Notes under the pieces: model-generated
The model's database searches: none
Told to the model about the DNA's origin: nothing
Seen by the model: only the letters and a program-made list of their open reading frames with translations
Assembly (NCBI RefSeq): GCF_009931435.1
Contig: NZ_CP043414.1
DNA length: 64,000 nucleotides
Reading direction: 5' to 3' (one strand)
From: Escherichia coli
GTDB lineage: Bacteria; Pseudomonadota; Gammaproteobacteria; Enterobacterales; Enterobacteriaceae
Part shown: positions 18,402 to 58,993 of the stretch, one piece after another
Position numbering within the stretch: position 1 is the first letter of the stretch
Layout of the letters: every line of letters begins with the position of its first letter
Program-made: the position numbers and the translations under genes

Positions 18402-19859
18402 ATGACAATAACTCCACAAAACCTGATCGCACTGCTACCGTTGCTGATCGTCGGCTTGACGGTGGTGGTTGTGATGCTCTCCATTGCGTGGCGACGCAAT
18501 CATTTCCTCAACGCTACGATCTCGGTTATTGGGCTTAACGCGGCGCTGGTTTCGCTCTGGTTTGTCGGCCAGGCGGGCGCTATGGACGTTACGCCGCTGA
18601 TGCGCGTTGATGGTTTCGCCATGCTTTACACCGGGCTGGTATTGTTGGCGAGCCTCGCCACCTGTACTTTCGCCTACCCGTGGCTTGAAGGCTATAACGA
18701 CAACAAGGACGAGTTCTACCTGTTGGTGTTAATTGCCGCGCTGGGCGGGATCCTGCTGGCGAATGCCAACCATCTGGCGTCTCTGTTCCTCGGTATTGAA
18801 CTGATCTCTTTGCCGCTGTTTGGCCTGGTCGGTTACGCTTTCCGCCAGAAACGTTCGCTGGAAGCCAGTATCAAATACACTATCCTTTCTGCCGCAGCGT
18901 CTTCTTTCCTGCTGTTCGGTATGGCGCTGGTGTATGCGCAGTCTGGCGACCTGTCGTTTGTCGCGCTGGGTAAAAACCTCGGCGACGGTATGCTCAACGA
19001 GCCGCTGTTGCTGGCAGGTTTCGGCCTGATGATTGTTGGCCTTGGCTTCAAACTCTCTCTGGTGCCGTTCCACCTGTGGACGCCAGACGTATACCAGGGC
19101 GCGCCTGCGCCGGTTTCCACTTTCCTGGCGACGGCGAGCAAAATCGCTATCTTCGGCGTGGTGATGCGTCTGTTCCTTTACGCACCAGTGGGCGACAGCG
19201 AAGCGATTCGCGTGGTGCTGGCGATTATCGCCTTTGCCTCTATCATCTTCGGTAACCTGATGGCGCTGAGCCAGACCAATATCAAACGTCTGCTCGGTTA
19301 CTCATCTATCTCTCACCTCGGCTATCTGCTGGTGGCGCTGATTGCGCTGCAAACTGGCGAGATGTCGATGGAAGCGGTAGGGGTTTACCTGGCCGGTTAT
19401 CTGTTCAGCAGCCTCGGCGCGTTCGGCGTGGTCAGCCTGATGTCCAGCCCGTATCGTGGCCCGGATGCTGATTCCCTGTTCTCTTACCGCGGTCTGTTCT
19501 GGCATCGTCCGATCCTCGCGGCAGTGATGACGGTGATGATGCTGTCACTGGCGGGTATCCCAATGACGCTGGGCTTTATCGGTAAGTTCTATGTGCTGGC
19601 GGTCGGTGTCCAGGCACACTTGTGGTGGCTGGTGGGTGCGGTGGTTGTCGGTTCGGCAATCGGCCTCTACTACTACCTGCGCGTAGCGGTGAGCTTATAC
19701 CTGCACGCCCCGGAGCAACCGGGTCGCGACGCACCGTCAAACTGGCAGTACAGCGCGGGTGGTATCGTGGTGCTGATCTCTGCACTGTTGGTACTGGTGC
19801 TGGGTGTATGGCCGCAACCGCTGATTAGCATTGTGCGGTTAGCAATGCCGCTGATGTAA
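18402..19859 (+). CDS. nuoN: NADH:quinone oxidoreductase subunit N (antiporter-like)
   Basis: 485 aa membrane protein, last gene of the operon. Confidence 0.93.
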
Positions 19860-19882
19860 GCTGTCAGTTCGTAAGTCAGAAA

Positions 19883-19910
19883 GCCGCCGACAAGTTCGGC
19901 GGTTTTTTTT
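19883..19910 (+). terminator. Rho-independent terminator of the nuo operon
   Basis: Stem ccgccga / tcggcgg with a 5-nt loop followed by 8 T, 24 nt after the nuoN stop. Confidence 0.75.
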
Positions 19911-19926
19911 GGTGCCCTGACCCCCA

Positions 19927-20430
19927 TCACCCAACAATAACCGTCAGCGCATGATTCCCTTGCCGCAGCATACGTCGATACGCGCTAATCAGCTTTTCCA
20001 TATCGAGCATGATCGAAGCAAAGAGTTGCCCCTCTAACTCTTCTGAAAAGGTTACTCCCGGATAAATCTCCATTTCATTGAGTCGTTTAATGGAAAACTG
20101 TTTACGCAGCACATTTCGGTCAAGAGCTTCCAGTCGGTCGATTGTCGCGGCTAACTCCTGATTCCAGGTCAATCCCAGGAATCCATCTATGCCATCTTCG
20201 AGGCTGTGTTCACCAAGCACGGCACGACTCAGCGGATCATTCTTCGCGGGATCAAAAGCAGAGGTGCCTGTCAGCCCAAAGTGTAAAAAATCCCAGCGTT
20301 TATCAATATCCAGTCGGCGTAATCCTGAAAGCGTGTCATGTATATTATCCATCAAAGGTTTTTGAGTAGACTCAAGAAGTTGGTTAATCTTTTCTGAGTC
20401 AATTTCTGCAAAATAGCCAATCATTCCCAT
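19927..20430 (-). CDS. yfbM: DUF1877-family protein YfbM
   Basis: 167 aa ORF with ATG start; recognised as YfbM; convergent with nuoN. Confidence 0.85.
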   Translation of the reverse strand: MGMIGYFAEIDSEKINQLLESTQKPLMDNIHDTLSGLRRLDIDKRWDFLHFGLTGTSAFDPAKNDPLSRAVLGEHSLEDGIDGFLGLTWNQELAATIDRLEALDRNVLRKQFSIKRLNEMEIYPGVTFSEELEGQLFASIMLDMEKLISAYRRMLRQGNHALTVIVG

Positions 20431-20532: not shown

Positions 20533-21504
20533 TTATTTACTGTTGTATAACAAAGTTATAACCCCATCCACTACCTGAGCCATTTTCTGATAATTCAATC
20601 TGTCTGCGGTATCACCGGGCAAGTGGTATTGTTTATTACGATAAAAAGCGGTGTCGGTAATCATTACGGCGGGAATATCGTGTTGCCAATAATTAAGGTG
20701 ATCAGAGAAATCAATACCGGGAATAAACCCTGGGGCATTCATAGAATAAACAGATAAATCCTGAGATGACAACAATGCCGCTTTTAGCTGACGAACGGCG
20801 TTGATATCCTGCATTCTGCCGACCACGGCAATAAAGTCTCCCCGATCGGGATAAAGCCAGGACATTGCCGGGTAAGGGTAATCCTGACTACCAGGCGCAG
20901 AGTCGTAATAGCCAATCATCTCCAGCGCTATCATTAATCTAACTGGACGCTCAAGCGAAGCTGCATGTACCGCGCTCCCCATTTCATCGCTACGAAAGAA
21001 GGGCGGTTCTTCCGACGCATAGGCGACCAGCTGCACGCCAGTTTTCGGTGCTTGCTGCTGTAACAAACGTGCCAGTTCGAGTAATCCTGCCACGCCGCTG
21101 GCGTTATCATCCGCGCCCGGCGTATAGGTCAATTGATCGTTTTCATAACTGCTGACAGAATCATAGTGCGCACCAATAATAATCAGCGGTCCATCGGCAG
21201 GACCATAATCAGCAACAATGTTTTTGTAGGGACCTCCCGTAATGGGGACGTCCTGCGCGGTAACGCTGGCACCGCTACTGATAAAGACCTCTTTTATATA
21301 TTCTGCGGACCTTTTCAGATTATCAATATTGTCGGCACTACGGGGATGCACAGTTTGTGTAAGATAACGAACTGTTTTTTCTAATTGCTCAGGACTTGTG
21401 TGTCGGGGCGTTGGCGGTAATGCATTGACCCAGGGTTGGTAAAAAATAATCAGAGGGAGTGAAAACAGAATTAATATAATAAAAGCAAAGTTTATTTTTT
21501 TCAT
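20533..21504 (-). CDS. yfbL: M28-family aminopeptidase-like protein YfbL, signal peptide present
   Basis: 323 aa from the ATG at 21504 (the ORF-track start at 21510 is a TTG); N-terminal hydrophobic signal; metallopeptidase M28 hallmarks (HYDS ... DDNASG ... EE). Confidence 0.85.
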   Translation of the reverse strand: MKKINFAFIILILFSLPLIIFYQPWVNALPPTPRHTSPEQLEKTVRYLTQTVHPRSADNIDNLKRSAEYIKEVFISSGASVTAQDVPITGGPYKNIVADYGPADGPLIIIGAHYDSVSSYENDQLTYTPGADDNASGVAGLLELARLLQQQAPKTGVQLVAYASEEPPFFRSDEMGSAVHAASLERPVRLMIALEMIGYYDSAPGSQDYPYPAMSWLYPDRGDFIAVVGRMQDINAVRQLKAALLSSQDLSVYSMNAPGFIPGIDFSDHLNYWQHDIPAVMITDTAFYRNKQYHLPGDTADRLNYQKMAQVVDGVITLLYNSK

Positions 21505-21641: not shown

Positions 21642-23369
21642 ATGCGAAATAAAAATATAATCATGTTGCTTATGAGTAGTTTGATTTTGTCAGGATGTGG
21701 GCCGGAACCTGAGAATAAGGAAAGTCAGCAACAACAACCCAGTACTCCAACAGAGCAGCAAGTGCTTGCCGCGCAGCAAGCTGCAATAAAAGAGGCTGAG
21801 CAAAGCGCCGCCGCCGCGAAAGTCTTGGCCCAGCAAGAAGTGCAACAATATTCAGACAAACAGGCTTTACAGGGGCGATTGCAGGAAGCGCCAACATTTG
21901 CAAGAGCGGCTAAAGCAAAAGCTACACATGTCGCAAATCCAGGAACCGCTCGCTATCAGCAGTTCGATGATAATCCGGTTAAGCAGGTAGCGCAAAATCC
22001 GTTGGCGACGTTTAGTCTTGACGTTGACACTGGCAGTTATGCGAATGTACGGCGTTTCCTCAATCAAGGGCTGTTACCTCCGCCAGACGCTGTGCGGGTG
22101 GAGGAGATAGTCAATTATTTCCCGTCTGATTGGGATATCAAAGACAAACAATCTATTCCGGCCTCTAAGCCAATACCTTTCGCTATGCGCTACGAATTGG
22201 CACCTGCGCCATGGAATGAACAGCGAACATTGCTGAAAGTTGATATCCTGGCGAAAGATCGCAAAAGTGAAGAGTTACCAGCTTCTAATCTGGTCTTTCT
22301 TATCGACACTTCTGGTTCAATGATTTCTGATGAACGTTTGCCACTTATCCAGTCTTCGTTGAAATTATTGGTCAAAGAACTTCGTGAGCAGGATAACATT
22401 GCTATCGTGACCTACGCTGGCGACTCCCGTATTGCATTGCCTTCTATCTCCGGGAGTCATAAGGCGGAAATTAATGCCGCAATTGATTCGCTGGATGCCG
22501 AAGGCAGTACCAATGGCGGTGCCGGGCTGGAACTGGCTTATCAGCAGGCGGCGAAGGGGTTTATTAAGGGCGGTATCAATCGCATTTTATTGGCCACTGA
22601 CGGTGACTTTAACGTTGGTATTGACGATCCAAAATCGATTGAATCAATGGTCAAAAAACAGCGGGAGTCCGGTGTTACTCTGTCGACGTTTGGCGTGGGG
22701 GATGACAATTACAACGAGGCAATGATGGTGCGAATTGCCGATGTTGGCAACGGTAACTACAGCTACATTGATACCCTCTCTGAAGCGCAGAAAGTATTGA
22801 ACAGTGAAATGCGGCAGACGTTGATTACCGTAGCAAAAGATGTCAAAGCGCAAATTGAGTTTAACCCCGCGTGGGTAACGGAATACCGTCAGATTGGTTA
22901 TGAAAAGCGCCAACTTCGGGCGGAAGATTTTAATAACGACAACGTTGATGCGGGGGATATTGGCGCAGGCAAACATATAACGTTGTTATTTGAATTAACG
23001 CTGAACGGGCAAAAAGCATCAATTGATAAGTTACGCTATGCCCCGGATAACAAATCAGCGAAATCGGACAAAACGAAAGAACTGGCCTGGTTAAAAATTC
23101 GCTGGAAATACCCGCAGGGAAAAGAAAGTCAGTTAGTTGAATTCCCGCTGGGGCCAATAATAAACGCGCCCTCTGAAGATATGCGTTTTCGCGCAGCAGT
23201 AGCTGCATATGGGCAAAAGTTACGCGGTTCTGAATACCTGGACGAAATCTCATGGCAGCAGATAAAACAGTGGGCTCAGCAGGCAAAAGGGGAAGATCCA
23301 CAGGGTTACAGGGCGGAATTTATTCGCCTGGTTGAACTGGCGGATGGGGTGACTGGCATCAGTCCGTGA
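21642..23369 (+). CDS. yfbK: von Willebrand factor type A (vWA) domain lipoprotein YfbK
   Basis: 575 aa; lipobox LILSGC at the N-terminus; vWA MIDAS motif DTSGSM; AAGGA RBS upstream. Confidence 0.85.
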   Translation: MRNKNIIMLLMSSLILSGCGPEPENKESQQQQPSTPTEQQVLAAQQAAIKEAEQSAAAAKVLAQQEVQQYSDKQALQGRLQEAPTFARAAKAKATHVANPGTARYQQFDDNPVKQVAQNPLATFSLDVDTGSYANVRRFLNQGLLPPPDAVRVEEIVNYFPSDWDIKDKQSIPASKPIPFAMRYELAPAPWNEQRTLLKVDILAKDRKSEELPASNLVFLIDTSGSMISDERLPLIQSSLKLLVKELREQDNIAIVTYAGDSRIALPSISGSHKAEINAAIDSLDAEGSTNGGAGLELAYQQAAKGFIKGGINRILLATDGDFNVGIDDPKSIESMVKKQRESGVTLSTFGVGDDNYNEAMMVRIADVGNGNYSYIDTLSEAQKVLNSEMRQTLITVAKDVKAQIEFNPAWVTEYRQIGYEKRQLRAEDFNNDNVDAGDIGAGKHITLLFELTLNGQKASIDKLRYAPDNKSAKSDKTKELAWLKIRWKYPQGKESQLVEFPLGPIINAPSEDMRFRAAVAAYGQKLRGSEYLDEISWQQIKQWAQQAKGEDPQGYRAEFIRLVELADGVTGISP

Positions 23370-23439: not shown

Positions 23440-24654
23440 TTAACTTACTCTTTTGCCTGATGCTCTATTTTGGGGTTGTGAGTGTTTTATTTCTAAGTCT
23501 CTATAATAATCATTGATATTTGCATCGCCATATTTATCTAAATAACAATTTCTGTTTACCTGTCGATGTTGAAAATCAATTTCGTACTGCTCTTCTGCTG
23601 AATATTTTTTAAATCTGTCAGCATAGTTTTTTAATAACGTATAGGGAGCGCTGTCAGAATTGCTTTCCCTTTGTTCAATTACTTCTTTGGCTGCCATGCA
23701 CACAAATGCACCGCAACTTTGGCTTAAGTATTGCTGAAGATCGGCATGTAAAAATGTTATCTCTTGTTCAGTTAAATGATCTGTTATATTCTTATTATTC
23801 GGCATTTCCCCCATGAATTTAGAATTGAAACTATTAATGACACGCTTAAGTGAATTTTCTTTATCATGGCCTAGTGCACGTAATGAGTTGAATATGACGC
23901 ATTTTATTTGTTGTGTGTTATTTTTTTCATTAACTATTTTTTGTAGCGAAACTAATATCCAGTGTCCGCCAGTATTTATGGGGAATAACTGGACTTCTTT
24001 CGGCCATGATGGATCGCTCTTAATATTATCATTGAGAGCGATTTCCAGGTAAGTGCTGTTGGAATCGGGGAGGTAGAGACCAGTAGGATAATTGACTTGA
24101 GTATTTTTTGCATTAGCGGCGATCTTCTGAAGATAGCAATCTATTTCATCCGTGGTTAATTGACGATTTTTATCCCAGAAGTTTGTACCATCGCTCAGTT
24201 CATTATTCTTATCATTTAAAAGTACCTTTGAAAGCGACTGTTTTTCTGATATGAGAGGAATGTCCTCACCGATAATTGTCATTAATTTCGAAGGGGAGAA
24301 TAGTTTTTTGAACAGGAGATTATCTGAATTATGTGATTTGAGGGGGTGTTTGGTTGCGGTATGTGCCAAATTATATAATTTTAAACAGGCATTTTTTATA
24401 AGCTTGATAATCGATAGGGTATCATTTGTTGGGTTTCTAACAATATGGTAAAGAATATCTTCAGCTTTTTTTCCAAATTCATCATAACCTAACGCAATAT
24501 TATGCAGTAACTCAATGCTTTCTTCATCTCCGGATAACGCTGTTTTTTTTAAAGACTGCAGTAATTCCTCGGTCACAGTAAATTTTTCTGCAAATGTCTG
24601 ACAGAGTTGGGTTTGAGATAATTGACAATAATTGCTGACAACTGTAACCATCAT
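23440..24654 (-). CDS. elaD: ElaD, CE-clan cysteine protease with deubiquitinase activity
   Basis: 404 aa ORF in a markedly AT-rich stretch; recognised as E. coli ElaD (..[16 protein letters not shown].. catalytic His region). Confidence 0.85.
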
Positions 24655-49364: not shown

Positions 49365-50267
49365 TTAGTGGTTATTGGCTGCAAGATCGGCTTCGCTTAG
49401 CTGGATGGCTGCGAGCACCTGGTCACGATCAATGCCCTGTTCCAGCATGCGCAAGGCAATTTTAATGGCTTGTTCATGCATGCCTTCCTGCCAGCCAATT
49501 TGATGCCCTTCCTGCCGTAGCCGTTCAGCAATAGTCATCAATCTCTCCTTTTGTAGTGGTGAACGTTCGGCAATCTCCTCAATAAAACGGGTGAAACGGG
49601 AGGTATCGCCGCATTGCAGCAGATAATTAAACAGCGTTTGTAGCTGGCTGTCATTAGTGAAGCCTCTAACCAAAAGCGTGGTGATCCTGTCGACCATACC
49701 GATTAAATCGCGGTCGCGAATATGCTTTTGAATCAGTTCCAGCAGAGCTATACGCCGATGTTGCATGATCTCATCGTCAGGCACGATGGTGATATCCACC
49801 AACGGAAAAGCTTCGGTGTACAACTGCCGGGCAAGTTGCGGATCATCAAACTCATCCAGCCAGTTAAGTGAGTATGGGTAGGGCGAGGTTTCGCCGTGAT
49901 AAAACAGCAACGGCACCACCAGAGGGACTCTGTCATAGCCTTTGTCCAGGTGACGCTGCATGGCGGCGGTGGCATAGCGCATTAGCCGAAAAGCCATATT
50001 CTTTTCTGCGGAACTTTGATGTTCAATCACGCAGTAGATATAGCCGTCACCATCGCTGGTTTCCACCGACCACAAAACATCCGAGTAGTAAGCGCGTAAA
50101 CTTTTTTCAATAAAGCTGGTGGGTTCCAGGCGTAAGGTTTGCAGGTTGCAAAGTTTACGCAGTGGCTCCGGTAGATGTATTTCGAGAAAATCCCGCGCGG
50201 TTTCGGGCGAGAACATAAAGGTTTTAAACACCGCATCATGCGGGGAGGAGGTTGTTGATTCGGTCAT
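49365..50267 (-). CDS. rpnB: Rpn-family recombination-promoting nuclease (YhgA-like, transposase_31 / PD-(D/E)XK)
   Basis: 300 aa; recognised as YfaD/RpnB ([33 protein letters not shown]...). Confidence 0.8.
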
Positions 50268-57245: not shown

Positions 57246-57274
57246 GCAGGATGGCGTTTATGCGCCATCCTCTG
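57246..57274 (+). terminator. Hairpin just downstream of glpQ
   Basis: ggatggcg / cgccatcc stem with a 6-nt loop, 8 nt after the glpQ stop; no strong T-run. Confidence 0.45.
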
Positions 57275-57457
57275 CTAAAGCGAAATAATGCTACTACCGG
57301 TTATTCTTTTCATTAACGGGTGCATCCTGTAAAAAGATGCCAACATAATTTTCGTAAAACTCATTCGTTAAAAAAGCTAACACTGTGCATTGTTATTCTT
57401 TAAACAGTATGAATAGGTCTCAATAATAAATTGTAATGCAGTTTATACTGTAAAGTA

Positions 57458-58528
57458 TTATTCGAATTTCGGAAAGGTAAAGAAAATATTAATGTATCTT
57501 ATTAATTTATCATATTGTTCTTGGGTGAATGCTGTTTGCACACCTTCAGGGCAATATTTACCAGTAATAACCAGTTGCCCATTGCTGTGTTGTACCATTA
57601 AACCTTCTTTTTCCTTTGGATCTACAAAATTAGAATTATCAAATGTGAAGATATTTTTTTCCTGTTTTGAGTAAGTAAAGAAATCTCGTGTATAGCTGAA
57701 ACTATCATTTATTAATGGTGCTAACTTTTTGTCGGCGATATCGATAAGCTCACCACTTAATTTATTGATGTATTTAATTTGCTTCAATTTTTTCTGCGCT
57801 TGCACAATTTGCTTGTAGGTGTTTTCAATTTTTTTAGAAGAATTCTTAAATACATCATAGCGTTCCTCGGAGGATGTGTATTTGTACCATTCTGTATTTT
57901 TCTCAGAATGTTGTAGCAGGTCTGTATATTTTTTTTGATCGCTGTAAAGTTGACTTTTAATACTTTCCTCACTGCTGATCTTATAATGTTTATCAGAGTT
58001 GTTTGTTTTTGAAATGTCCTTTTCTGTCAGTGTCTGGTCCGTGTTGTGGGTATTTTCTTTTGCAACATGCTCATTGATGATGTTAATTGCAGTTTCATAT
58101 TCATTTAAATTTATTGTTCTTTGTGAAAGAAACCCTTCTTTGCTTTCGATACTCAAAACACCTTCGTTGTTTTCACCTCTGGTAAAGGTAAGGATATAGG
58201 GTTCATAATCTTCTGCAAATTCATTTTTATACGTTATGACATGCTCGACAAAATGTCTTATTGGTACGAAACCATAACTGTGAACGTCAATTTTTTTGGT
58301 CTTGACACTATCAATTTCATCTGAGGCTTTCGTGAAAAAAGCCAATAAATTAGCTATGTTGTCTGCTGAGGTTGATAACCCGAATCTACTTTGAGATATT
58401 TTTAGAAACTCATTGCAAAAAATCTCAAGTTTCGCGGTTTGTTGTGATTCTTTGTAAATTTCTGCTGTTTGCAATTTATTATTTTGTAAAATATTACAGC
58501 GAGATAAGTGAATAGATGTATTTGGCAT
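57458..58528 (-). CDS. Orphan hypothetical protein of about 356 aa, no family recognised; AT-rich, foreign-looking
   Basis: Long uninterrupted ORF in a very AT-rich block; ATG at 58528 preceded by AAGGA at good spacing (the track start at 58564 is a TTG); Lys/Glu/Ser/Asn-rich, no TM segment, no motif I can place. Confidence 0.6.
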   Translation of the reverse strand: MPNTSIHLSRCNILQNNKLQTAEIYKESQQTAKLEIFCNEFLKISQSRFGLSTSADNIANLLAFFTKASDEIDSVKTKKIDVHSYGFVPIRHFVEHVITYKNEFAEDYEPYILTFTRGENNEGVLSIESKEGFLSQRTINLNEYETAINIINEHVAKENTHNTDQTLTEKDISKTNNSDKHYKISSEESIKSQLYSDQKKYTDLLQHSEKNTEWYKYTSSEERYDVFKNSSKKIENTYKQIVQAQKKLKQIKYINKLSGELIDIADKKLAPLINDSFSYTRDFFTYSKQEKNIFTFDNSNFVDPKEKEGLMVQHSNGQLVITGKYCPEGVQTAFTQEQYDKLIRYINIFFTFPKFE

Positions 58529-58993
58529 AAATGATTCCTTGTAGTGTGAGTTAACAAGATACAATTTAATCTTTGCAGAATATATTCACTATCAAATTTA
58601 GCTCATTTTATTACGAAGACCTTTACGCATGTTAGAAAGTATCATTATTGTTAATAAATACGGTAATAAGTAACAAACAGATATTGATAACTTCCCTGAC
58701 AAGTTATTAGGTATCCCACTTGAAGATTGAGAATGGCTCCAGAGTAGACTGTGTACTGTTCGCCGGAGTGTCATTACTCTCAACAATCGGTTTTGACAGT
58801 GAGTCGGGCGCTTCATACCGGTTTCTACCTGGAGTCATTGTCACTTCCCTAATCTGGATAAATATTTATCGCTAATTCACAAAGTGGACCAAAATCAGGT
58901 GAAAACGAATTATTACGCATGGTAAAGACTACAGGCCAACTAAGTGTGGCGAATCAGACAATCTTACATTTGTCATCAATCTCATGTCTCACA

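Follow-up and report, generated by a model that had tools for sequence, protein, structure and literature searches.

The directly adjacent nuoN and yfbM genes of an Escherichia coli genome: probably an ancestral junction free of the yfbN-yfbO-yfbP islet of K-12

In the stretch of Escherichia coli DNA analysed here (64 kb, referred to below as the window), nuoN is followed directly by the convergent gene yfbM, with none of the three genes that separate them in K-12 MG1655. This unoccupied junction is common in Escherichia and probably the ancestral one, whereas K-12 and some 18% of E. coli carry an acquired low-GC islet that would have been spread or removed by recombination in its flanks. An earlier note on this DNA had described yfbN, yfbO and yfbP as apparently absent, and they are indeed missing from the window; the loss which "absent" implies is, however, unsupported, since most E. 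coli have the empty junction, which is shared, together with a homologous spacer, by other Escherichia. The indel is an ordinary accessory-gene polymorphism of a known kind, seen here from its islet-free side. The comparison of K-12 with O157:H7 by Perna and co-workers in 2001 reportedly described strain-specific islets of the K-island and O-island type. Like yfbN-yfbO-yfbP, such islets are small low-GC blocks in K-12, made up of uncharacterised genes that other strains lack at the corresponding point of the backbone; the window differs from them in being the islet-free partner, to which nothing has been added.

The nuoN gene of the window, whose counterpart in E. coli records is annotated under the same name, is 97.6% identical in nucleotides to nuoN of MG1655, with a single amino-acid difference over 486 aligned codons. 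Of its 35 nucleotide differences from K-12, 32 fall in third codon positions. On the other side of the junction, the yfbM product matches the Pfam family DUF1877 from end to end (E=4.5e-34), and the gene, also annotated as yfbM in the matching E. coli records, shares 97.0% of its nucleotides with K-12 yfbM and differs from it by three amino acids. The stop codons of the two genes are separated by exactly 67 bp, the spacing given in the earlier note, and this gap, which is devoid of coding capacity, consists of a 23-nt leader, a hairpin followed by eight T's and a 16-nt spacer that abuts the yfbM stop codon (Table 1). A scan of the gap against Rfam brought no family near its gathering score, the best matches being sroD (19.8 bits, for a cut-off of 50) and ryfA (15.6 bits, for a cut-off of 80).

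The earlier note had also placed the terminator of the nuo operon in this gap, where a fitting hairpin with its T8 tract is found. The hairpin starts 24 nt past the nuoN stop, on the coding strand and after the last gene of the operon, and combines a stem of 7-8 bp, six of them G-C pairs, with a 5-nt loop and a U8 tail, so that both the GC-rich stem-loop followed by a U-tract and the position past the last stop that are expected of a rho-independent terminator are present. The plus strand of the gap folds at -26.4 kcal/mol (z=-4.09), a stability that none of 200 shuffled sequences equalled, and the stem is invariant in five Escherichia lineages (the window, E. coli, SCPM-O-B-8794, E. whittamii and E. 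albertii). On these grounds the element is predicted to be a textbook rho-independent terminator of the nuo operon. This call rests on the thermodynamic fold and not on a consensus search, as a simple consensus terminator scan listed zero sites at the gap; the miss is probably explained by the AAA run upstream of the stem, which is able to pair with the T-run, thereby extending the stem and using up the T tail. On the minus strand the GC core of the hairpin still forms, followed only by CUUUCU, and the overall fold is unexceptional (z=-1.3); termination of yfbM transcripts at this hairpin would be weaker.

Table 1. Positions in the window of the features at the nuoN-yfbM junction and of other loci mentioned in the text
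Feature	Position	Strand	Description
nuoN	18402-19859	+	485 aa ORF; last gene of the nuo operon (NADH:quinone oxidoreductase I)
nuoN stop codon	19857-19859	+	TAA
Gap between the two stops	19860-19926		67 bp
A-run	19880-19882		AAA, upstream of the stem
Predicted intrinsic terminator, nuo operon	19883-19910	+	RNA fold and U-run
Hairpin	19883-19902	+	stem GCCGCCGA/TCGGCGG (19883-19890 / 19896-19902), loop CAAGT
T8 run	19903-19910	+	directly 3' of the hairpin
Spacer GGTGCCCTGACCCCCA	19911-19926		16 nt, from terminator T-run to yfbM stop; position of the K-12 islet
yfbM	19927-20430	-	167 aa ORF, convergent with nuoN
yfbM stop codon	19927-19929	-	TGA (TCA on the plus strand)
yfbL	20533-21504
yfbK	21642-23369
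elaD segment	23345-24837
elaD	23440-24654	-	intact
Overlap of two MG1655 BLAST segments	49423-49552		~130 bp, near the K-12 rpnE/glpC boundary
Second indel relative to MG1655	57271-58982		~1.7 kb without K-12 counterpart
AT-rich ORF in the second indel	57458-58564	-	368 aa

The gene order that the earlier note gives for K-12, with yfbP, yfbO and yfbN lying between nuoN and yfbM, agrees with the annotation of MG1655, which runs yfbM (b2272), yfbN (b2273), yfbO (b2274), yfbP (b2275) and nuoN (b2276). The window is collinear with positions 2344805-2409905 of MG1655, in reverse orientation, and a pairwise BLAST alignment of the two breaks at window position 19907, within the T-run of the terminator (MG1655 2390000), to start again at position 19926, 1 bp short of the yfbM stop codon (MG1655 2387438). 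Between these points, 2,561 bp of K-12 stand against 18 bp here (window 19908-19925), which have no MG1655 counterpart. The flanking genes, their orientation and the terminator hairpin are the same in both genomes, and the flanks are 96.8-97.5% identical, whereas the stop-to-stop interval of MG1655 measures 2,610 bp and carries three genes. MG1655 does not have nuoN directly adjacent to yfbM, so the strain-level indel proposed in the earlier note is real. The K-12 insert has a GC content of 39.8%, as against 55.9% in the neighbouring nuoM-nuoN segment.

Searches with the YfbN, YfbO and YfbP proteins over the whole window (tblastn) gave only chance-level matches, the best with E=0.011, and the three genes are therefore missing from the window rather than relocated within it. 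No islet of the K-12 type lies between nuoN and yfbM, and neither fragments of the three genes nor residual repeats, which the earlier note had proposed to look for at the junction, were found in the window. The ends of the insert in K-12, and those of a related insert in E. coli UID2309220013 (locus L006), show no direct or inverted repeats beyond short, chance-level matches. At L006, a 16-nt direct repeat (81%) between the 3' ends of the yfbO-like gene and yfbM was considered as a deletion repeat and rejected, as its product would not match the empty junction that is observed.

How common each allele is was surveyed in 5,426 complete E. coli genomes (RefSeq). A 1-kb probe recovered a contiguous junction in 4,310 of them, a count that may include insertions of up to ~1 kb such as the IS200/IS605 element of H30, and a 111-bp probe did so in 4,207, CFT073 and O157:H7 among them, which means that the empty junction is found in ~78-79% of the complete E. 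coli genomes. The K-12 insert was matched in 1,015 of the 5,426 genomes, 946 of them with a coverage of at least 80% and 985 with an identity of at least 99%; carriers of the K-12-type islet thus number ~950-1,000 genomes, or roughly 18% of sequenced E. coli. An identity of at least 99% in 985 genomes would fit a single recent origin of the K-12 islet. BLR(DE3) has no K-12 islet, so the B lineage also does without it. In the common empty E. coli junction (CFT073, O157:H7 TR01 and UTME-12), the nuoN stop is followed by the hairpin with its T-run, a spacer of ~15 nt and the yfbM stop, just as in the window, which differs from most of these junctions by point differences only (GACCCCCA instead of GACACCA, and a loop CAAGT instead of CATGT); over the 111-bp probe, the best identity to the window is 98.2%. 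Being so common, the empty state makes a weak strain marker. The suggestion that the indel helps to place the strain background holds insofar as the ~18% of genomes with a K-12-type islet are set aside, and otherwise says little: an empty junction excludes only a K-12-like background.

The same arrangement extends beyond E. coli. A scan of a collection with one genome per species returned four loci, among them that of SCPM-O-B-8794, a genome labelled E. coli whose nuo genes are ~94.5% identical to those of the window and in which the junction is contiguous, as it also is in E. whittamii. E. albertii is an early branch of the genus, and five independent genomes of this species, 98.9-99.5% identical to the type-strain contig, show a gap of 63 bp. 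In E. albertii and E. whittamii, nuoN and yfbM converge as in the window, 63-68 bp apart and with an invariant terminator stem, although the spacer has diverged, being 4 nt shorter in E. albertii, and the flanks are 83-96% identical to those of the window. Homologous spacers are seen in UTME-12 (GGTGCCCTGACACCA), SCPM-O-B-8794 (GGCGCCCTGACACCA) and E. whittamii (GGTGCTCTGATACCA), together with the shorter one of E. albertii. Aligned with one another, the unoccupied junctions of the window, one E. coli strain and the three other lineages are collinear, spacer included, with a mean column identity of 89%. Deletions arising independently would not share both breakpoints and spacer, and the empty junction is therefore one inherited state, older than E. 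coli itself.

The gap has also been filled in other ways. About 24 E. coli genomes, UID2309220013 among them (L006 7001-8322), harbour a yfbN-yfbO pair without yfbP, of ~85% nucleotide identity to K-12, whose L006 proteins share 79% (YfbN) and 89% (YfbO) of their amino acids with those of K-12. In the lineage of Escherichia sp. MOD1-EC7003 (L009/L020; L020 6656-8547), a gap of 2,120 bp holds the three genes orf191-yfbN-yfbO. The left breakpoints of both L006 and L020 keep the ATGGT of the empty spacer. The occurrence of such strongly diverged versions at the same position means that the yfbN-yfbO core is old at this site. Moreover, the 63-67-bp gap is a repeated target of insertion sequences: ISEcB1 sits in it in BLR(DE3) and TUM17668, and an IS200/IS605 element in two further genomes, one of E. 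coli (15.TR.026_OXA) and one of E. albertii whose sequence is identical to that of the type-strain contig; UTME-12 carries an IS66 inside yfbM. These insertions, in the gap or in the adjoining yfbM, were located at L023 2587-3944, L005 9528-10531, L024 2155-2613, L018 6625-7246 and L004 9774-12109. TUM17668 is missing the genes yfbM-yfbL-yfbK-elaD.

From the shared empty junction, the low GC content of the insert and the near identity of the islet among its carriers, we infer the direction of the event, namely an insertion in K-12 and the ancestral state in the window. The low-GC islet of 2.56 kb (yfbN-yfbO-yfbP) would have come in by horizontal transfer and taken the place of the spacer that separates the T-run of the terminator from the yfbM stop codon. 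One old illegitimate insertion could have been the origin of the islet, which would later have been spread or removed by homologous recombination in the conserved nuoN and yfbM flanks, so that the lineage of the window would either never have had it or have inherited the empty allele. This is the best account, given that the islet comes without an integrase, a transposase or flanking repeats, and homologous recombination in the flanks would be the likeliest route by which the alleles moved. A lineage-specific deletion, by which the window strain or a recent ancestor lost a yfbN-yfbO-yfbP islet that it once had, would agree with the presence of these genes in K-12 and with the fact that the closest complete genomes over window positions 8000-32000 (97.3%) are islet carriers. 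A fresh deletion would nevertheless not recreate a 16-nt spacer with homologues in ~4,200 genomes of E. coli and in three further Escherichia lineages; no remnants are found in the window, and the ends of the K-12 insert show no repeats through which the loss could have occurred. Such a deletion is very unlikely.

The alternative that Escherichia originally had yfbN-yfbO at this site and lost it in one early deletion, with the empty allele then spreading by recombination and the occupied alleles surviving as old polymorphisms, is improbable as well, if less so than a recent deletion. It would account for three diverged occupied alleles at one site, whose nucleotide identity (85-92%) is well below that of the flanks (94-98%), and for the ATGGT motif retained at two left breakpoints. 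However, the early-branching E. albertii is empty in all five genomes, the insert is low in GC, and the occupied alleles differ in their content (yfbP, orf191 or neither), which fits the acquisition of cassettes better than vertical descent. As to a collapse or omission of a 2.5-kb segment in the source assembly, the chance is practically nil: the identical 67-bp junction is present in three independent assemblies (L011-L013) that match the window at 98.8-99.99% identity, and thousands of complete genomes share the arrangement. An ancestral empty junction, later occupied in K-12 and its like, is accordingly the reading that we retain.

What the islet proteins do, and how they may have travelled, was approached through domain and database searches. 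Pfam returned only weak matches below the cut-offs, UBA-like for YfbN and TPR for YfbP, and the identification of YfbN, YfbO and YfbP as a defence system was discarded after zero PADLOC hits. None of the occupied alleles is accompanied by an integrase, a transposase or terminal repeats, and neither end repeats nor a recombinase domain that would mark the junction as an excision scar or attachment site of a mobile element were found. Searches (tblastn) with YfbN and YfbO detected nothing in a phage collection and, among plasmids, one 100%-identical match in a 365-kb E. coli record, besides weak matches in Hymenobacter. This record may represent chromosomal DNA that was deposited as a plasmid, and YfbN and YfbO appear, judging from these matches, not to reside on real plasmids. 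In the literature, the loss of yfbO, as well as that of yfbL, has been described to render K-12 resistant to phage N4 (preprint 10.1101/2025.09.29.679331), and yfbN and yfbO have been listed among the blockers in a retron toxin/antitoxin screen (preprint 10.1101/2020.06.22.160242); these leads concern the K-12 islet, and nothing carried in the window.

The lineage of the window may be a deep-branching, E. coli-like one. It has no representative among the 5,426 complete genomes, the closest of which reach 97.3% identity over positions 8000-32000 and 98.6% over 26000-50000. Contigs from metagenome-derived and NCBI data (GCA_044679585.1 and ENA ERZ27237940) match the window at 99.98-99.99% and show exactly its junction. 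The differences from K-12 fall overwhelmingly in third codon positions and are mostly synonymous, so the divergence is natural. Some further features of the region can be recorded here. The nuoN-rbn interval is low in GC (~43.5% in K-12) and variable in content; elaD, intact in the window, lies in a segment that is missing in the E. albertii, E. whittamii, MOD1-EC7003 and SCPM-O-B-8794 lineages and in E. coli UID2309220013. The products of yfbL and yfbK differ from those of K-12 at 20 of 324 and 17 of 576 amino acids, respectively, as compared with 1-4 differences in each of the nuo proteins at a similar DNA identity, so that these accessory-like genes show far more non-synonymous change. At a second indel relative to MG1655 the window has an AT-rich ORF of no obvious identity, where K-12 shows the yfaH pseudogene region between glpQ and inaA, and the overlap of two BLAST segments near the rpnE/glpC boundary suggests a short duplication or a repeat-associated small indel.

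A broader proposal, which we consider unlikely, is that the nuoN-yfbM gap could be a conserved cassette site of Escherichia, in which recombination in the flanks would exchange alternative small modules, each with yfbN-yfbO at its core and with yfbP, orf191 or nothing in addition, and the module would affect the interactions with phages; if this were true, the empty allele of the window would be functional in its own right, with another profile of phage susceptibility, and more than the mere lack of an islet. The alternative fillings of the 63-67-bp gap and the repeated IS hits in it are mildly useful for pangenome annotation, but bring in nothing that the window itself contains. Above all, the comparison corrects a bias of the reference genome, since K-12 is the unusual strain at this position, and genes "absent relative to K-12" are not to be taken for deleted ones.
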